A stretch of 52,259 nucleotides of DNA from a phage (GCA_025325205.1 GCA_025325205.1_4770.1); one strand, 5' to 3'. Shown: positions 17,129-25,292, counted from the stretch's first letter. Made by a program: numbers and translations. The notes: generated by a model from the letters alone, not told the origin.

Positions 17129-17719
17129 ATGCTCATCACGATAATATCGGATGCGTCGTTCTGTCACCGTACTAAATGTGGAGGCTATGGAATTTGGGTA
17201 GCCTCCAAACGGGGTAAAAAGGCTTTTGGTGGCCCTGCACATGGCCACACGGATAATACCGTAGTCGAATGTATTGCAGTAGCTAACGGTTTATATCATG
17301 GTATAGAAGCTGGACTTATCTACACAAACGACGTTATATTGTTCCAGACGGATTGCAAAGCAGCTATCCATATGTTCGAAGGTAAACGTCCACCGAGAGG
17401 AGAAGAGCAGCAAGTATATAAATGGTTCATGGATACTATTGTCGAGAATAGACTTAGTTTCCAATTTCGTCATGTTAAAGGTCATTCGGGTAGGATGGAT
17501 TCCCGTAGTCTTGCACAAGACAAGTGCGATGAAATTGCGGGTATGCACATGCGAACAGGTAGACGACGCATGGACTACGATAAATTAAAAGTAGATACAG
17601 CAAAATCCGTTATTCCTAAACCGAAGAAATTTAACATTGAGAAACAGCAATCTTGGGTTAGGAAGTTAAAACTTCTTGTTCGGGAACACACAAAGGTAAA
17701 TTTCAATGGCTCGATTTAA
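17129..17719 (+). CDS. RNase H-like nuclease
   Basis: IISDASF ... GGYGIW ... ECIAVANGL ... TDCKAAIHM ... KGHSG: pattern of acidic residues and spacing typical of RNase H fold. Confidence 0.5.
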   Translation: MLITIISDASFCHRTKCGGYGIWVASKRGKKAFGGPAHGHTDNTVVECIAVANGLYHGIEAGLIYTNDVILFQTDCKAAIHMFEGKRPPRGEEQQVYKWFMDTIVENRLSFQFRHVKGHSGRMDSRSLAQDKCDEIAGMHMRTGRRRMDYDKLKVDTAKSVIPKPKKFNIEKQQSWVRKLKLLVREHTKVNFNGSI

Positions 17720-18650
17720 ACCTTTTCTTGCAACAGATTGGGATTCAGCTAAACAGAAATACCCTGTAGGTATCATGCCTAAAATTGACGGCGTTCGTGG
17801 GATGAAACCGTTTGGGGAGCTTGTTGGACGAAGTCTTAAATCTTTTGCAAATAAGCAGGTCGCAAAGGTATTTGGATCTCCCATCTATGATGGTATGGAC
17901 GGTGAGCTTGCGGTTGGGGACGAAACGGACTTTGATTTATGTCGCAAGACAAGTAGTGCAACATCTAAAATTGAAGGTGAATATGTTTGGACGTGGCATG
18001 TGTTCGATTTGTGCGAACCGAATGTTGCACATCTACCGTACAAAGAGCGTTATGATATGCTCAAGAAGTACGTGGACGAATGCCACGCTAACGGCGAGTT
18101 GATGGACGTGAAACTTGTGCCGTTGTATGTGGTCAACAACGAACAAGAACTCCTGGAGTGGGAAAATATTTGGCTCGATATGGGATACGAAGGTGTTATT
18201 ATTCGTGATCTTGAAGCGAAATATAAATGGGGTCGTAGTACGCAACGTGAAGGCGGTTATCTCCGCATTAAACGTTTCACTGATGGTGAAGGCGAGATCA
18301 TTCGTATCATTGAAGGTTGCACCAACGCAAATGAGGCTCAGATTAACGAATTAGGACAGACGTTCCGTTCATCCCATCAGGAAAATATGATTCCAAATGG
18401 TATGGTTGGCTCATTTGATGTACGTGTGCTTACAGTACCAGAAGGCCTTGAAGATCTTATTGAAGTCGGGCAAGAGATGCGTGTAGGTGCTGGTCGTCTT
18501 ACGCACGAAGAACGTAAATATTATTTTGAGCATCCTGATGAATTCATTGGGAAGATTTCTAAATGGAAATTCTTTGCTCACGGTATGAAAGATAAATTGC
18601 GTATTCCTACGCATCAAAGTTTCCGTGATCCAACAGATATTAGTGAATAA
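17706..18650 (+). CDS. ATP-dependent DNA ligase
   Basis: Motif I KIDGVRG (KxDGxR adenylation lysine), DGELAVG, size about 310 aa typical of minimal phage ligases. Confidence 0.75.
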   Translation: MARFKPFLATDWDSAKQKYPVGIMPKIDGVRGMKPFGELVGRSLKSFANKQVAKVFGSPIYDGMDGELAVGDETDFDLCRKTSSATSKIEGEYVWTWHVFDLCEPNVAHLPYKERYDMLKKYVDECHANGELMDVKLVPLYVVNNEQELLEWENIWLDMGYEGVIIRDLEAKYKWGRSTQREGGYLRIKRFTDGEGEIIRIIEGCTNANEAQINELGQTFRSSHQENMIPNGMVGSFDVRVLTVPEGLEDLIEVGQEMRVGAGRLTHEERKYYFEHPDEFIGKISKWKFFAHGMKDKLRIPTHQSFRDPTDISE

Positions 18651-18714: not shown

Positions 18715-19461
18715 ATGCAATTTACAACTACCGCGCAGGCAGTTTTAGACACTGGTGTCAAGATGCTTGTGTATGGTGAATCCGGTATGGGTAAGACCAT
18801 GCTCACAGCAACCCTTCCAAGACCGTTGCTGATTTCTGCAGAGTCCGGGCTTTTGTCTTTAACACCGAATAACATTGCTCGTGTATTTGGTGAAAACAGA
18901 CCAGATATCTGCTACGATATTCCAACCATCACGGTTGAAAATATCCAGGATGTAGAGCAGGCTTATGTTTGGGCGACTAACCCTGCAAACAATCCTGTAG
19001 GTGAAGATGGTTTACCGCGCTTTCAGTCTCTTGCGCTGGATTCACTTACTGAGATTGCTGAAAAGTGCCTTAACAATGCGAAGCGTACTGTGAAAGATCC
19101 GCGTCAGGCTTATGGGGATCTTATTGAGAAGATGCAAACTTTAGTTCGCGCTTTTCGAGATATCCCTGGACTTAACGTGTACATGGCAGCTAAAATGTCC
19201 CGTAACAAGGACGAGTTGACAGGTATTACGTCTTACGGTCCTTCTATGCCTGGTGCAAAATTAGGTCCAGAATTACCATACTTTTTTGACGAAGTGTTCA
19301 AAATTAGTGTTGGTAAAGACCAAAATACTCAAGCAGATTTTCGTTATCTGCTGACCAGACCAGATCTGTCAAATGTATGTAAAGATCGTTCTGGTTCGTT
19401 AGAACAGATGGAATATCCACATCTTGGTGCAATCATTAACAAAATCAAAGGGGTGCAATAA
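18715..19461 (+). CDS. RecA-core ATPase (Sak4-like recombination protein candidate)
   Basis: Walker A VYGESGMGKT, Walker B-like LALDSL; about 250 aa; adjacent SSB-like gene. Confidence 0.5.
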   Translation: MQFTTTAQAVLDTGVKMLVYGESGMGKTMLTATLPRPLLISAESGLLSLTPNNIARVFGENRPDICYDIPTITVENIQDVEQAYVWATNPANNPVGEDGLPRFQSLALDSLTEIAEKCLNNAKRTVKDPRQAYGDLIEKMQTLVRAFRDIPGLNVYMAAKMSRNKDELTGITSYGPSMPGAKLGPELPYFFDEVFKISVGKDQNTQADFRYLLTRPDLSNVCKDRSGSLEQMEYPHLGAIINKIKGVQ

Positions 19462-20384
19462 TGGCCGGTTTAGGAATGCAATTTAACGCTGGACAACACG
19501 CAGAGCGTCAACACAATAGCTTGATGCCCGCTGGTTGGTATGTTGTTCAGATTGTAAACTCTGAAATCAAACCGACTAAAACTCCAGGCGGTGCGCGTCT
19601 GAATCTTCAGTTTAAGATTATGCAGGGTGATTTTGCTGGTCGTGTAATGTTTGGCGGTTACAACGTCAAGAACGCGAACCCTGTCGCTGTACAGATTGCA
19701 ATGGAAGAACTGGCAGAGCTGTCCCGTGCTGTTAAAGTTCCAGTTTGGAACGATACCGAACAACTGCACGGTATTCCGTTCAACCTGAAAGTGAAAGTTC
19801 GTCAGCAACCTGGCTATGAGCCAAACAACGAACCTCAGATTTATCAAGCAATTGATAATATGGAAGGTGTTGTATACGCAACTAAGGCGGACATGGCTAA
19901 CCTGCCTAAATCAACTCCGGCAGCGGCAGCACAGTCTCCAGCATTTGGTGGCGGTGCGTTCGGTGGTACTCAGCAGCCACAGCAGCAGCAACCGCAGCAG
20001 GGTTTCCCTGGTGCATTTGGGCAGCAGCCGCAGCAACAGCAGCAGCAACCTCAGACTCAGGGGTTCCAGCAGCAGCAGCAACAGCAACAACAGCCGCAGC
20101 AGCCGGTACAGCAGCAGCAACCGCAGCAGTCTGGAACAGTTGATTTTAACAGTGCGGCACAATCTCAACCGTGGGCTAATGGTGCGCAGCAGCAGACTCA
20201 GCAGCAACCTAACTGGGCAACTCAGCAGGTACAGCCTGGAGCAGAGCAACCACAAACTCAAGCTCAGAATACTGGTACTGCTAACCATGCAGAACCTGAA
20301 GTCCAGGATGATATCGCTAAAGCAGCTCAGACCAAGACTCCACCGTGGAAACGTTCCACTGAAGGCGATGACGCTGCACAGTAA
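19461..20384 (+). CDS. putative ssDNA-binding protein with Gln/Pro-rich low-complexity linker
   Basis: Globular N-terminal part then QQPQQQQ... tract and acidic C-terminus; position next to Sak4-like ATPase; no OB-fold motif verified. Confidence 0.35.
   Translation: MAGLGMQFNAGQHAERQHNSLMPAGWYVVQIVNSEIKPTKTPGGARLNLQFKIMQGDFAGRVMFGGYNVKNANPVAVQIAMEELAELSRAVKVPVWNDTEQLHGIPFNLKVKVRQQPGYEPNNEPQIYQAIDNMEGVVYATKADMANLPKSTPAAAAQSPAFGGGAFGGTQQPQQQQPQQGFPGAFGQQPQQQQQQPQTQGFQQQQQQQQQPQQPVQQQQPQQSGTVDFNSAAQSQPWANGAQQQTQQQPNWATQQVQPGAEQPQTQAQNTGTANHAEPEVQDDIAKAAQTKTPPWKRSTEGDDAAQ
19971..20130 (+). repeat. CAG/CAA-rich (poly-Gln/Pro) coding microsatellite
   Basis: Runs of cagcagcagcaaccgcagcag read from sequence inside ORF 19461-20384. 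Confidence 0.8.
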
Positions 20385-20403
20385 TTAAAAATCATGTTAT
20401 AAT

Positions 20404-20430
20404 AAAGCTCCTCCGGGAGCTTTATTTTTC
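20404..20430 (+). terminator. rho-independent terminator
   Basis: AAAGCTCC-tccg-GGAGCTTT hairpin followed by ATTTTTC. Confidence 0.6.
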
Positions 20431-20446
20431 TATATAGGATTATGAT

Positions 20447-21397
20447 ATGCCACATTTTTATCCTGCTACTAAGACAATGGAGTTATTCAATGACTGTATT
20501 GAACGAGATCAAGGATCCGCTTACAGAGTATGGCTCGGAAAAGTATTACCGCATATTGAAGACGCATATCGAGAGGGAGATGGCGGATTCCGTTCGCATC
20601 TTGGGATTAGTCTTATCGGGCAAGAATGTAGTAGAGCAATCTTCTACGGATGGAGATGGGCAACTAAACCACACTTTAACGGTAAAACCTTACGTCTATT
20701 CAATCGCGGGCATCTTGAAGAAGGTCGCTTCGTGGCCTTATTACTTACCGCCGGTATGCAAGTCATCCAACAAGACGAAAATGGCAGCCAGTATAGAGTC
20801 AGCTATCTCAACGGGCACTTTGGTTCCGCGATAGATGGTATTGTCATTGGTTGCCCCGACATGCCACAACCTTCTACACCAATCTTAACGGAGATGAAAA
20901 CGCACAATAACGATTCGTTCAAGAAACTTGTCGTTAATGGTGTGATGGAATCCAAATGGGAGCACTATGTTCAGATGCAGGAATACATGTTGTATTATGG
21001 GCTCCCAGCCGCTCTTTATATTGCAGTTAATAAGAACACGGACGAGATTTGGGCAGAGCTTGTACCGTTTGATAAAGAAACAGCAGAACGCTACAAAGAC
21101 CGTGGATTTGTAATTGCACTGGCGGAATGCCCACCACCTAAGATCAATGAAAGTAAATCTTACTATAAATGCAAATGGTGTGACCACAAAGCGGTGTGCC
21201 ATAACAACAAAATGCCTGAAGTTAACTGCCGCACCTGTAAGCACTCTTATCCGCTTGAAGATGGAACCTGGAGATGCGCAATCAAAGTAGCTTCTGCTAC
21301 TGCATACATCACGGATGGAACCGAAGGTGTATTAACGAAGGAAGATCAGATGGCAGCATGTGGTCAATACGAAGCAGCAGATTATTACGGTGAGTAA
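20447..21397 (+). CDS. Cas4/RecB-like PD-(D/E)XK exonuclease with cysteine cluster
   Basis: AIDGIV ... TEMKT (D...ExK); N-terminal Cys (QECSRA) plus C-terminal CKWCDHKAVC suggest a Cas4-type Fe-S site. Confidence 0.55.
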   Translation: MPHFYPATKTMELFNDCIERDQGSAYRVWLGKVLPHIEDAYREGDGGFRSHLGISLIGQECSRAIFYGWRWATKPHFNGKTLRLFNRGHLEEGRFVALLLTAGMQVIQQDENGSQYRVSYLNGHFGSAIDGIVIGCPDMPQPSTPILTEMKTHNNDSFKKLVVNGVMESKWEHYVQMQEYMLYYGLPAALYIAVNKNTDEIWAELVPFDKETAERYKDRGFVIALAECPPPKINESKSYYKCKWCDHKAVCHNNKMPEVNCRTCKHSYPLEDGTWRCAIKVASATAYITDGTEGVLTKEDQMAACGQYEAADYYGE

Positions 21398-23401
21398 ATG
21401 TTCAAACTACGTGATTATCAGCAAGAAGCTGTAAACAGTACATTGCGCTATTTCATCAAGTATGGTGAAAAGTCAGGAAATCCTGTTATCTTGTTGCCTA
21501 CAGGGACTGGTAAGTCCCTTGTAATTGCTGGTCTATTAAAGACAATTCACGATAATTGGGGTAGTACCCGCATGATGGTAATTACTCACGTAAAAGAATT
21601 GATAGACCAGAACCACGATAAATTTAAGAAGTTGTGGCCTGAAGCACCGACTGGTATTTATAGTGCTGGTATGGGTCGCAAGGATAAGAATGCAATGATA
21701 ACGTTCGCAGGTATTCAGTCTGTTGCAAAACAAGCTAAATACTTCGAGGACGTTGATATTATTATAGTTGACGAATGTGACCTTATTAGCCCAAATCAGC
21801 AAACAAGTTATCAGAAGTTCTTTGCGCACATTCGTGAAAAGAACCCATATCTAAAGATTATCGGTCTTACTGCTACGAGTTGGCGTCTTGGTTTTGGTTC
21901 TATTATCAAAGATGATTATGCGCCTAACGCTTTATTTGATGAAATCGTATTTAACGCATGTACCGTAGAGTGCTTCAACTGGTTCATTGATGAAGGTTAT
22001 CTTGTTCCGTTAGTACCACGTAAAACAAAGAAAGAGTATGATGTAAGTGGTGTTCATACTCGAGGCGGTGAGTTCATTGAAAGTGAGCTTCAAAAGGTTG
22101 TAAACGATCCTGATGTAACTCGCCATTTATTAGATGATGCGATTAGTATTGCGGAAGAAGAGAATAGAATGAGTTGGCTTGTCTTTTGTGCTGGTGTAGA
22201 CCATGCAAAAGATGTCAAAGACTACCTCAACGAGCGCGGTATTAGTTGTGAAGTTGTAACTGGTGATACACCGAAAGCCTTGCGTGACCAGTATCTTATT
22301 GATTTTAAAGCTGGTCGTTTACAGGCAATAGCAAACAACAACGTATTGACGACAGGCTTTGACCATCCGGGTCTTGACTTGATAATTGGTATGCGCCCGT
22401 CCCAATCTTCCCGCCTATGGGTTCAGATGCTTGGACGTGGTACTCGACCTGATTATGCAGATGGTTTTGATTTGACCACAACGGAAGGTCGTTTGCAAGC
22501 TATCTCCGCTTCGCATAAACAGAACTGTCTTGTACTAGACTATGCAGGTAATACAAGACGTCTTGGACCTATTAACGACCCTGTAATTCCTAAGCGTCCA
22601 GGGCAGAAAGGAAAGTCCGCTGCACCTGTTAAAGAATGCCCGGTATGTAAAACCTGGAACCATGCGTCGGTTCGCTATTGTGGTGGGTTAAAACCATTCG
22701 ATACAAGCGGTATGTCCCATGAAGAAATACTCTATCTTCAAGGGTTAGGATATACCATTACAAATAATAAAGCGTGTCGTGCTGGTTATTGCGGTCATGA
22801 GTTTACTTTTGAGAAGAAACTGATGGCGAGTGCTAGTACGAAGGCTATTATCAAGAATGATTTGCCAGTCACTGAAGTGTTGAAAGTTGATATGGTGAGT
22901 TACTATCGTCACGAGAACAGGGGTGACCGTTCTAAGCCACCAACACTTCGTGTAGATTATCTTTGTGGGTCACAAACTATTCAACAATATATTTGTCTGT
23001 TTCATACTGGCTTTGCAGGCAAGAAAGCGCGTAACTGGTGGCGCGAGCATTGCAGCTTGGCAATCCCAGCCAACATTGACGAAGCCCTCAATGTGGTCAG
23101 CCAGCTCCGTGTACCGACGCACATTTATGTCAACTTGAAGGGTAAGTTCCCTGAAGTGTTGAATAGTTGTTATGACGGTAGTGAGTTCGGTAAGAAAGAA
23201 GCAACCAACGAACGTCCGGTTGTACAAATCGCAGCAATGAATGGCTTGTCCCAGTTTGGTGGAAGTTATACGAATAAGTTTGATGAAGACGAGCAGACTG
23301 ATTCTCGTACGACAGTATTGCATTCTACGTCTAATCAACCTATTCTTACTGGTAACGGTAAAGAACTACCACCAGATTTTGATGACGACATTCCATTTTG
23401 A
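21398..23401 (+). CDS. SF2 DNA helicase with zinc-finger and SSB-like acidic C-terminal tip
   Basis: Walker A LLPTGTGKS, Walker B IIVDECD, TATSWR, QMLGRGTR; CPVCKTWNHASVRYC; last residues PPDFDDDIPF. Confidence 0.75.
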   Translation: MFKLRDYQQEAVNSTLRYFIKYGEKSGNPVILLPTGTGKSLVIAGLLKTIHDNWGSTRMMVITHVKELIDQNHDKFKKLWPEAPTGIYSAGMGRKDKNAMITFAGIQSVAKQAKYFEDVDIIIVDECDLISPNQQTSYQKFFAHIREKNPYLKIIGLTATSWRLGFGSIIKDDYAPNALFDEIVFNACTVECFNWFIDEGYLVPLVPRKTKKEYDVSGVHTRGGEFIESELQKVVNDPDVTRHLLDDAISIAEEENRMSWLVFCAGVDHAKDVKDYLNERGISCEVVTGDTPKALRDQYLIDFKAGRLQAIANNNVLTTGFDHPGLDLIIGMRPSQSSRLWVQMLGRGTRPDYADGFDLTTTEGRLQAISASHKQNCLVLDYAGNTRRLGPINDPVIPKRPGQKGKSAAPVKECPVCKTWNHASVRYCGGLKPFDTSGMSHEEILYLQGLGYTITNNKACRAGYCGHEFTFEKKLMASASTKAIIKNDLPVTEVLKVDMVSYYRHENRGDRSKPPTLRVDYLCGSQTIQQYICLFHTGFAGKKARNWWREHCSLAIPANIDEALNVVSQLRVPTHIYVNLKGKFPEVLNSCYDGSEFGKKEATNERPVVQIAAMNGLSQFGGSYTNKFDEDEQTDSRTTVLHSTSNQPILTGNGKELPPDFDDDIPF

Positions 23402-23408
23402 GGCTTAT

Positions 23409-23648
23409 ATGGCAAAGATGACTTTTAGGAGTAATGACCATTTACCAGAAGAAGGTGAATGGAAGACTTTTAAAGAGTGGGAAGAGTTGGGTTATGGTGT
23501 AATTAAAGGTGAAAGAGCTAAACGGTTTATTCACGGTGTTGCAGTTTTTCACGAAAGTCAAGTAATCAATATTGAAGATGAGTTCGAAAAATATAAACGT
23601 GAAGAACTGCAAGGAATGTATTGTGGACCAGAATGGTGGAAGGATTAA
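23409..23648 (+). CDS. hypothetical protein
   Basis: ORF 23241-23648 trimmed to ATG 23409 after helicase stop. Confidence 0.3.
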   Translation: MAKMTFRSNDHLPEEGEWKTFKEWEELGYGVIKGERAKRFIHGVAVFHESQVINIEDEFEKYKREELQGMYCGPEWWKD

Positions 23649-24467: not shown

Positions 24468-25292
24468 ATGGCTAAAGAGAAAACTCCAGAACAACTGGAA
24501 GCAGAAGAAGCAGCAAAGAAAGCAGCAAAAGAAGCTGAAGCAAAGAAAAAACGTGAAGCTGAAGAAAAAGCAGCACGTGAATTGCAGGCTAAAGTTGACG
24601 CCGCAATGAACGAAGCCACTGCCGGTTACAATGTGATCGAAGGTGCTATGTCCGCTGTTAAAGAACAGTTTGACACTCTGCACGAAGGTTCGTTGCTGGA
24701 CGAAGTTAAAGCAGTTGAAGGCGTAGTTACCGCTCAACTGAAGACCGCTAAAGAAGGTCTGAAAGCTGTTAAAGCAGCAGCACGTAAAGTTAAAGACAAC
24801 GATCAACTGAAAACTGCCGTTGCAGCATCTGAAGATCTGGTTTCCGGTGTTGAAGCCACTCTGAAAGATGTTAAAGGCCGTGTATCCGCTGCCCGCGAAG
24901 CCACTAAAGCCGCTGAAAAAGCGAAACGTGACGCTGAACGCGCTGAGAAGAAACGTCTGCAAGACGAAGAGCGCGCTCGTAAAGCAGCAGAACGCGAAGC
25001 TAAGAAAGAGCCGGAACAGAACGGTATTCGTAAGCCTGGTGTTGGTACGCTGTGCCGTGCTGCATGGGACATTTTTGATGCTGTTACCCTGGAGCTGGGT
25101 CAGACTGCACCGATCAGCTACGTTCTGCCGGTTGCACTGGACAAAGGCCTGAACGAAGCGAACGTCAAAGCGGAATACGCTCGCTGGAAGAAATACATGG
25201 GCATTACTGGTCGCGTATCAGTCCCAGTACCTGCTAATATTGCACAGGCGGCCGCTAACGTAGAAATTCCGTCTCAGAAATCTGCAGAGTAA
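24468..25292 (+). CDS. Lys/Glu/Ala-rich coiled-coil-type protein, unknown function
   Basis: 274 aa, charged repetitive EAKK/AAKE composition; codons look like highly expressed E. coli genes (CGT, CTG, GAA, AAA, GGT, GCT) unlike neighbours. Confidence 0.5.
   Translation: MAKEKTPEQLEAEEAAKKAAKEAEAKKKREAEEKAARELQAKVDAAMNEATAGYNVIEGAMSAVKEQFDTLHEGSLLDEVKAVEGVVTAQLKTAKEGLKAVKAAARKVKDNDQLKTAVAASEDLVSGVEATLKDVKGRVSAAREATKAAEKAKRDAERAEKKRLQDEERARKAAEREAKKEPEQNGIRKPGVGTLCRAAWDIFDAVTLELGQTAPISYVLPVALDKGLNEANVKAEYARWKKYMGITGRVSVPVPANIAQAAANVEIPSQKSAE

Follow-up and report, generated by a model that had tools for sequence, protein, structure and literature searches.

The closest described counterpart of the locus considered here is the Sak4-SSB pair of phage HK620 (HkaL/HkaK; Hutinet et al. 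2018, PMC5928155), in which the gene for a P-loop ATPase consisting of the RecA core alone overlaps and precedes the gene for a non-canonical single-strand DNA-binding protein (SSB). The HK620 SSB encoded beside sak4 binds single-stranded DNA (ssDNA), and acts through its last six residues, NDYPPF, to stimulate annealing by Sak4 (PMC5928155). A further point of reference is provided by the DUF669 proteins: HHsearch has linked them to the experimentally proven SSB of phage N4, and it has been suggested that they act as the replicative SSB where a phage encodes no other (PMC4889955). On the side of the host, E. coli RadD works on recombination intermediates together with RecA and SSB; a pocket in the first of its RecA-like domains takes up the C-terminal peptide of SSB, which stimulates the RadD ATPase (PMC10238739). 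The present analysis concerns a stretch of phage DNA of 52,259 nucleotides (GCA_025325205.1_4770.1; hereafter the window), in which genes for a Sak4-like ATPase, a DUF669 SSB with a long Gln-rich tail and a Cas4-like nuclease follow one another at 18715-21397. With a probability that we put at about 85%, this region forms the core of a conserved early recombination/replication block comprising the Sak4-DUF669 pair, an iron-sulfur (Fe-S)-type nuclease and a RadD-like helicase, with roles in resection and annealing and with drift in the length of the SSB linker.

By nucleotide sequence, the source phage is a 9g-like member of Nonagvirus (Queuovirinae), a group of virulent siphoviruses infecting E. 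coli and Salmonella: the 2683-base region is 95.8-97.7% identical, over its full length, to 18 Nonagvirus records. In the RefSeq records of SE1, JenP1, JenK1, 9g and JenP2 the three products are named ‘Sak4-like ssDNA annealing protein’, ‘single strand DNA binding protein’ and ‘Cas4-domain exonuclease’. In this sense, the three-gene module is an ordinary, already annotated recombination/replication block, and the partnership of Sak4 with DUF669 SSBs has likewise been published before. The initial annotation had placed three such genes here, and the three consecutive open reading frames (ORFs) recovered on the plus strand reproduce its coordinates exactly.

The first ORF, which includes VYGESGMGKTML, carries the Walker A motif GESGMGKT already read in the initial annotation, at residues 21-28 (18775-18798), together with a Walker B-type hhhhDS motif whose D109 and S110 are encoded at 19039-19044. 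In an alignment of 24 Sak4-like homologs, G26 and K27 of the former and D109 and S110 of the latter are invariant. Profile searches agree with the proposed assignment as a Sak4-like ATPase, giving 82 bits against PF13479 AAA_24 (cut-off 27) and 1.4e-54 against phrog_124, ‘Sak4-like ssDNA annealing protein’. The characterized HK620 Sak4 reaches the same two families, but weakly (30 bits and 1.9e-05, respectively). Further, as in HK620, the ATPase gene overlaps the SSB gene downstream of it, the stop codon of the one and the start codon of the other sharing a single nucleotide (TAATG), which suggests that the two are translationally coupled.

The pairing is also a persistent one. A scan of IMG/VR with a profile of the nuclease yielded 80 related loci, with nuclease identities of 47-100%, and in those reaching far enough upstream an AAA_24/phrog_124 gene lies immediately 5' of the DUF669 gene, as detected by phmmer in most of them. 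In 12 loci (L054, L057, L060, L063, L066, L069, L072, L073, L077, L078, L089 and L093) no Sak4 was detected by phmmer, and the slot immediately 5' of the SSB gene is taken by an ORF encoding a P-loop protein of ~278 amino acids. Of these, four were scanned (L054, L063, L073 and L093), and all four belong to AAA_24/phrog_124; six aligned members (L054, L057, L063, L073, L078 and L093) are 17-22% identical to the window protein and carry, past the Walker B region, an insertion of ~20 residues. This pattern suggests replacement of one subtype of the Sak4 ATPase by another inside a fixed module. The alternative that the Sak4-SSB pairing is broken in some loci was set aside, the protein encoded in this slot being a P-loop protein in all 12 and of the second subtype in the four scanned.

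The product of the second gene, labeled SSB-like in the initial annotation, matches PF05037 DUF669 over residues 14-116 with 35.4 bits (cut-off 21) and phrog_6015, ‘single strand DNA binding protein’, at 1e-92. An exhaustive search with its residues 1-168 returned 5552 cluster representatives at E <= 0.001. The initial annotation had named an oligonucleotide/oligosaccharide-binding (OB) fold as the feature by which the assignment could be judged, and such a fold is indeed predicted: AlphaFold2, provided with an 80-sequence alignment, gives a confident domain with a predicted local distance difference test (pLDDT) score of 93-98 over residues 21-140, whose elements, b1 (25-38), b2 (45-53), b3 (62-70), helix (74-91), b4 (107-114) and b5 (122-129), succeed one another in OB-fold order. 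The fold spans approximately residues 20-135 (19518-19865), and 103 viral DUF669/SSB models match this model at E <= 0.001. The window protein thereby joins the DUF669/N4 gp45-type SSBs as a PF05037 member, and the model bears out the OB fold that had been predicted for that group (PMC4889955). It is not of the canonical bacterial type, having neither a match to PF00436 nor a match by sequence to any SSB in the PDB. PrgE of pCF10 (PDB 8s4s) is 11% identical to it and, as described (PMC11137577), differs in being without a long disordered tail and in binding double-stranded DNA as well as ssDNA. On analogy with N4 gp45 and the HK620 SSB, the window DUF669 protein would be expected to bind ssDNA.

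Beyond the OB fold extends a tail of ~150 residues (from about residues 151-160 to 307), which is modeled at a pLDDT of ~50 with almost no secondary structure and is hence predicted to be disordered, being rich in Gln, Pro and Ala. In 147 representatives of the family the region following the OB domain is of low complexity throughout, Q-, A-, P-, E- or T-rich and anywhere from a few to ~200 residues long, and nearly all of them have Pro-Pro-Trp within their last 20 residues. P295 and W296 of the window protein are at least 90% conserved across 80 DUF669 homologs of 26-72% identity, in an alignment with a mean column identity of 19%. Among the 59 distinct SSBs of the related loci, PW is found in the last 20 residues of all and PPW in those of 56, while none ends in [IVL]PF; the window SSB itself terminates in ...TPPWKRSTEGDDAAQ. 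The PPW motif is the last of three tryptophan-containing islands in the tail, the others being QPW at residue 238 (20172-20174) and PNW at residue 252 (20214-20216). In Nonagvirus and its nearest relatives these islands are kept as V-D/N-F-x-x-A-A-Q-x-Q-P-W, Q-Q-P-x-W-A-x-Q-x-V-Q-P-G and D-D-I-x-x-A-A-Q-x-x-x-P-P-W-K.

In overall plan, the window protein resembles E. coli SSB, with the same three parts, i.e., OB fold, disordered linker and tip, the linker of the latter being likewise rich in Gln, Pro and Gly and tolerant of changes in length. However, its OB fold is not of the PF00436 type, its tip is PPW, and the DDDIPF peptide is instead found on the helicase encoded downstream. Acidic C-terminal tails are given as typical of DUF669 proteins in PMC4889955, whereas the subgroup of 5552 representatives to which the window protein belongs shows a near-universal PPW. 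With the HK620 SSB it shares a C-terminal Pro-Pro-aromatic motif (NDYPPF in HK620, TPPWKR in the window), although the aromatic residue is here a Trp and is not C-terminal, and the HK620 protein, at 195 amino acids, has only a short tail in place of the ~150-residue Gln-rich one. On account of the resemblance of PPW to the PPF of HK620, recruitment of Sak4 is, by analogy, the most likely role of this tip.

The most conspicuous part of the tail is the repetitive tract that the initial annotation had placed at 19971-20130 and described as a slippage-prone CAG/CAA microsatellite. Tandem Repeats Finder (TRF) places CAG/GCA arrays of period 3 at 19971-20000 and 20021-20129, with matches of 62-70%. 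Gln makes up 64% and Pro 15% of the encoded residues 170-224, and CAG accounts for 36 of the 46 Gln codons of residues 166-262. Uninterrupted CAG runs reach no more than four units, and mixed CAG/CAA runs no more than nine codons (27 nucleotides). The tract is thus an interrupted mosaic of CAG, CAA and CCG and not a clean microsatellite.

The predicted variation in length between isolates, on the other hand, is real. In a 3.28 kb nucleotide alignment of 14 isolates or genomes (13 further isolates having been added to the window), the SSB genes measure 906-948 nucleotides and the proteins 301-315 amino acids; residues 1-165 hardly vary, and the reading frame of the last 57 residues is preserved in every case. 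Eight of the 10 gap runs in the alignment fall within the 221 nucleotides at 19980-20200, and all eight (3, 3, 9, 9, 3, 15, 18 and 18 columns) are multiples of three. The density of variable sites across the 14 genomes is 21.6 per 100 nucleotides in the tract, as against 7-13 elsewhere. Several of the tract indels are common to subsets of phages isolated independently in different countries or laboratories, as in the case of a CAG CAG CCG insertion found in JenP1, HdK1, ChristophMerian, JenK1, FritzHoffmann, ESCO3, HdSG1, 9g and JenP2. In JenP2 (L013), a second QQGFPGAFGQQP unit replaces PQQPVQQQ at about SSB residues 212-222 (window 20094-20125), which indicates that, besides slippage of codons, exchange between longer internal repeats also occurs. 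In metagenomic SSBs of 266-294 amino acids the N-terminal domain is 99-100% identical.

Given the codon-sized unit and the interrupted repeats, this variation is a drift in linker length without on/off switching. A phase-variable contingency locus was considered and is ruled out, every tract indel being in frame and the repeats being interrupted. Likewise, candidate hidden genes over the tract, ORFs at 19816-20388 on the plus strand and 19911-20288 on the minus strand, are ruled out as Ser-rich or Leu-rich read-throughs of the repeat. The isolates thus amount to a small natural experiment, in which the tether of the SSB tolerates changes in length while the tip stays in frame, and the tract might be put to use in telling Nonagvirus strains apart. 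The two gap runs outside the tract are a separate matter. They lie at the 3' end of the Sak4-like gene, at about 19393-19403, and consist of a 4-nucleotide insertion in HdK1 (L005) and a 1-nucleotide deletion in 9g (L012) relative to the other 12 genomes, which shift the frame of the Sak4 C-terminus and the annotated start of the SSB; they are likely to be sequencing errors or recent frameshift lesions.

The third product is matched by phrog_1990, ‘Cas4-domain exonuclease’, at 7.9e-115 and, more weakly, by phrog_1706, ‘CRISPR/Cas system associated’, at 1.3e-06, and belongs to a family of 706 clusters at E <= 0.001. Across 28 sequences of 50-81% identity, C61 (20627-20629), D130 (20834-20836), E149 and K151 (20891-20899), Q176 and Y180 (20972-20986) and C242-x2-C245-x5-C251 (21170-21199) are invariant, a set that can be read as the RecB-type catalytic motifs (D, ExK, QxxxY) and the predicted Fe-S ligands in the pattern C...CX2CX5C. 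The latter spacing is characteristic of Cas4, AddB and EXO5. The four-Cys pattern reported in the initial annotation is therefore present but was an undercount, since there is a second invariant set in the same 28 sequences, C261-x2-C264, W275, C277 and C305 (21227-21361), for a total of eight conserved cysteines. This second module is modeled as a small beta-hairpin plus helix, with weak treble-clef and zinc-ribbon matches, and the spacing between its third and fourth cysteines varies widely among relatives.

The AlphaFold2 model of the nuclease (pLDDT 85.4, predicted template modeling score 0.82) has as its best Foldseek match the Cas4 protein SSO0001 (4ic1; E 3.7e-05, probability 1.0), followed by lambda exonuclease, an Argonaute-associated Cas4 (ACE1), human EXO5 and AdnAB; TM-scores, at 0.35-0.5, are modest owing to the additional domains. 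A profile search of the PDB returned only ankyrin repeats, which are spurious. The protein thus has the D...ExK, QxxxY and C...CX2CX5C motifs, and a fold matching those of Cas4 SSO0001, the AddB/AdnAB nuclease domains, EXO5 and lambda exonuclease. It differs from the SSO0001 chains (202-206 residues) in being ~110 residues longer, in its extra C-terminal CX2C...C...C module and in having no CRISPR context. As a tandem-repeat scan found no CRISPR-like repeat array in the window and the neighbors are recombination and replication genes, the nuclease is Cas4-like in fold and motifs and not a Cas protein. The earlier description as a Cas4-like exonuclease is accordingly upheld by the phrog_1990 match, the fold and the motifs, and not by a CRISPR context or a Pfam Cas4 match.

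The nuclease gene directly abuts that of a helicase, which starts on the base following the nuclease stop codon with no spacer. This helicase is a clear homolog of E. coli RadD (PDB 6jde, 7r7j): with phmmer, its residues 2-417 align to residues 3-387 of RadD (6jde) at an E-value of 3.9e-64, covering both RecA-like domains. Unlike in RadD, however, its C-terminal half is different and itself ends in ...PPDFDDDIPF, where DFDDDIPF (23375-23398) is identical to the C-terminal tip of E. coli SSB. A similar ending, PMDFDDDIPF, is seen in the helicase of Klebsiella phage K9PH25C2. More broadly, 73 complete helicases encoded beside the nuclease in the IMG/VR loci, representing 65 distinct sequences, were inspected (loci L016-L095; the tip is recorded also for L014, 8100-8462). 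An [IVL]PF ending is found in 68 of the 73, and in 60 of the 65 distinct sequences; among these 68, at least two acidic residues stand just before it in 64, and the end is exactly DDDIPF in 40. The tip is kept over an identity range of 42-100%, and the 40-70 residues preceding it vary freely. As noted above, no such tip occurs on the adjacent SSBs.

The pocket of RadD that receives the SSB peptide can be traced in 66 phage helicases. Its hydrophobic positions are kept (F19 in 65/66), and the equivalent of R145 is a Lys or Arg in 64/66; at the position of R49 an Arg or Lys is found two residues away in 64/66, and the position of R21 is not conserved, so that, of the Arg trio of the RadD pocket, only the R145 equivalent is clearly kept. 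These observations raise the possibility, put forward here tentatively and at rather less than even odds, that the classical functions of the SSB tail have been split, with the PPW tip borne by the SSB and the SSB C-terminal peptide by the RadD-like helicase, where it would act by self-activation or by mimicry of the host SSB. RadD is the one E. coli enzyme whose ATPase this peptide is known to turn on. From sequence, it is plausible that the helicase tail provides for self-activation or oligomerization independent of the host SSB, and also plausible that it serves as a mimic of the host SSB docking on host proteins that interact with SSB, such as the chi subunit, DnaG, PriA or RecO. No description of an SSB-type tip on a phage helicase was found in the searchable literature, and the arrangement may be new as an observation. 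The PPW and DDDIPF tips, together with the extra four-Cys module and the terminator described below, offer testable handles on how phage recombination proteins recruit their partners and host factors.

Wherever the contigs of the 80 IMG/VR loci reach, the order RNase H-ligase-Sak4-SSB-nuclease-helicase is maintained. Judged by this synteny, the predicted functional block extends beyond 18715-21397 into the abutting RadD-like helicase. The initial annotation was therefore right that the three genes belong together, but the module that it delimited is only part of a larger block, and one that is subdivided after the SSB gene. In the 62-nucleotide spacer between the SSB and nuclease genes lies a hairpin with an 11-bp stem, a GGGA loop region and a T run, the RNA form of which folds at -19.6 kcal/mol (z -4.1), with none of 200 shuffled sequences being as stable. 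Terminators are annotated at the same place in the GenBank records of SP8 and HdSG1, and no stretch of the 14-isolate alignment varies less than this spacer. Given this terminator-like hairpin after the SSB gene, the Sak4-SSB pair is probably the end of one transcription unit, expressed differently from the genes downstream; presumably, the terminator separates a highly expressed Sak4-SSB unit from the nuclease-helicase pair. Further, whereas the HK620 pair is accompanied by Abc2, an anti-RecBCD protein, that of the window is accompanied by a nuclease and a helicase of the phage's own.

The gene content, motifs, folds, apparent coupling and synteny described above come from the present analysis; the mechanism that they would serve is modeled on the characterized relatives. 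In this mechanism, the Fe-S nuclease, probably together with the RadD-like motor, would resect DNA ends in the 5'-3' direction, and the resulting ssDNA would be coated by the DUF669 protein, which is probably also the replicative SSB of the phage. The C-terminal tip of the SSB, held on its tether, would then recruit Sak4 to bring about ATP-dependent annealing of SSB-coated complementary strands, and the products could be finished by the ligase, RNase H and RusA encoded just upstream. The outcome would be recombination-dependent replication, concatemer formation and repair. The CAG/CAA tract would encode the flexible tether that joins the tip to the OB fold; being internally repetitive at the DNA level, it would gain and lose codons by slippage or unequal exchange, and only in-frame changes would survive because the tip downstream of it must stay in frame.

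Several observations weigh against the picture of a resection and annealing module built on the HK620 pattern. At the level of pairwise comparison with HK620, whose pair is the only one characterized biochemically, BLASTP alignment of the window ATPase with HK620 Sak4 covers the Walker A region only (E 0.017), and the DUF669 profile aligned to the HK620 SSB by hhalign receives a probability of 1.7%, the HK620 protein itself having no match to PF05037 in the current Pfam. Direct comparison thus does not establish homology to the HK620 pair, and the link to Sak4 rests on the shared Pfam and PHROG families, the published HHsearch results and the gene context. Against the PDB, the Sak4 profile recovers KaiC, with all matches below threshold (E 0.085-0.9), and sequence searches with all three proteins gave nothing meaningful. 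The window nuclease has no Pfam match even at an E-value of 10, PF01930 Cas_Cas4 and PF12705 PDDEXK_1 included; when 28 of its relatives were searched, PF12705 was recovered in 5/28 (best 2.1e-05), Exo5 in 2/28 and Cas_Cas4 in 1/28 (0.09). Moreover, the PPW motif is followed by basic or neutral residues and not by an acidic tail ending in Phe, so that the mechanism known from HK620 might not apply here. For the short length variants from metagenomes, collapse of the repeat during assembly is a possible origin. Finally, the place of the block among primase, polymerase, ligase and RNase H genes fits a role in the replisome equally well.

This last point can be developed into an alternative in which the block is primarily a replisome module, with the DUF669 protein as the sole replicative SSB, the AAA_24 protein as a fork-associated loader or mediator and the helicase as a fork-remodeling or replicative motor, annealing being secondary. 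Such an account would explain the position of the block between the primase genes and those for the DNA polymerase and processivity factor, with ligase and RNase H included, as well as the lack of any match to the canonical SSB family PF00436 among the nine neighboring proteins scanned with Pfam; DUF669 proteins have been argued to be replicative SSBs in just such phages without other SSBs (Kazlauskas et al., PMC4889955), and Staphylococcus phages, according to work as cited in PMC5928155, require Sak4 and the phage SSB in order to replicate and to form concatemers. The two accounts are not exclusive, however, as replication in phages of this kind is often recombination-dependent, while the predicted end-resecting Fe-S nuclease and the RusA resolvase point to genuine recombination chemistry, and E. 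coli RadD is reported (PMC8887467) to be without independent helicase activity and to act on recombination intermediates. A primarily replicative role is a real possibility, though one that we hold to be somewhat improbable. Far less can be said for the notion that the nuclease is a Cas4 engaged in counter-defense or in manipulating CRISPR, a role suggested for some of the Cas4 genes that phages carry. Its fold and motifs are indeed shared with Cas4, and its PHROG name and the phrog_1706 match point the same way, but it resembles lambda exonuclease, EXO5 and AdnAB equally well. Its slot between the Sak4-SSB pair and the helicase is fixed in the 80 loci, the window has no CRISPR-like array with which it might be associated, and its extra zinc-ribbon-like module is absent from the ~200-residue SSO0001 chains, all of which makes such a function most improbable.

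The variation in the tract invites its own alternatives. Its length could be under adaptive tuning, affecting the cooperativity of the SSB, the formation of condensates or the escape from defenses that sense phage SSBs or recombinases. In line with this, variable sites are denser in the tract than elsewhere, the tip is retained among relatives whose linkers differ widely in composition, being Q-, A-, P- or E-rich, and defense systems directed against phage recombinases exist (PMC11846896). Yet the density of substitutions in the repeat is partly a matter of alignment ambiguity, the isolates differ by only 1-9 codons in a tail of ~150 residues, and no correlation of length with host or source is seen among them; relaxed constraint accounts for all of the tract data without selection, and adaptive tuning is thus unlikely. 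An artefact of sequencing or assembly of the low-complexity repeat would be another explanation, as repeats may be collapsed by short-read assemblers, metagenome assemblies are the source of the shortest variants (266-294 amino acids) and the HdK1 and 9g records have the probable frameshift errors mentioned above close by. However, random errors would not be expected to leave all eight tract indel sites as multiples of three with the C-terminal 57 residues preserved, the sharing of several indels among phages isolated independently in different laboratories argues against an artefact, and tract repeats of at most 27 nucleotides are short enough to be spanned by single reads. We accordingly consider it very improbable that the polymorphism in the isolates is artefactual, and prefer neutral drift in the length of a tether within the resection and annealing block.

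Table 1. Positions of the genes and sequence elements of the block in the window
Feature	Position	Strand	Evidence
RNase H gene, upstream member of the block	17129..17719	+	PF00075 3.2e-07; phrog_531 1.2e-45; position kept in related viral loci
ATP-dependent DNA ligase gene, immediately 5' of the Sak4-like gene	17706..18650	+	PF01068 4e-08; phrog_114 6e-62; synteny
Sak4-like RecA-core-only P-loop ATPase, 248 amino acids	18715..19461	+	PF13479 AAA_24; phrog_124
DUF669 single-strand-binding protein, 307 amino acids	19461..20384	+	PF05037; phrog_6015; AlphaFold2 OB fold
CAG/CAA/CCG-encoded Gln/Pro tract, SSB residues 170-224	19968..20132	+	TRF period-3 arrays; codon alignment of 14 isolates
PPW motif near the SSB C-terminus, residues 294-296, candidate partner-binding tip	20340..20348	+	conservation in 80 DUF669 homologs
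Promoter-like TGCACA-17-TATAAT with upstream TG	20375-20403		consensus scan; overlaps the hairpin
Intrinsic-terminator-like hairpin in the SSB-nuclease spacer	20401..20431	+	consensus scan; RNA fold; GenBank annotation of SP8 and HdSG1
Cas4-like ‘iron-staple’ PD-(D/E)XK nuclease, 316 amino acids	20447..21397	+	phrog_1990; invariant motifs; AlphaFold2; Foldseek
RadD-like superfamily 2 (SF2) helicase, 667 amino acids	21398..23401	+	ResIII, DEAD and Helicase_C Pfam domains; phmmer against RadD

In the related phage SE1, the surroundings of the block comprise primase genes and RusA on the upstream side and 7-deazaguanine modification genes and the DNA polymerase on the downstream side. Scans of the whole window against Rfam and for tRNAs gave no matches. 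Directly 3' of the helicase gene is an ORF of 79 amino acids (23409-23648, plus strand), annotated in SE1 as an ‘ssDNA-binding domain-containing protein’, for which only a sub-threshold match to the ArdC N-terminal domain was obtained (21.6 bits against a cut-off of 22.6). The next-but-one gene downstream of the helicase block (24468-25292, plus strand) contains a further coding low-complexity repeat at 24498-24581, with periods of 9, 12 and 24, which is Lys/Glu/Ala-rich. Additional short repeats with periods of 9, 12 and 18 were reported by TRF at 35998-36037 and 36101-36125, with the consensus units ACCACCCCA and CCACCGAAACCG; these presumably lie in a structural gene and encode Pro/Thr-rich repeats.

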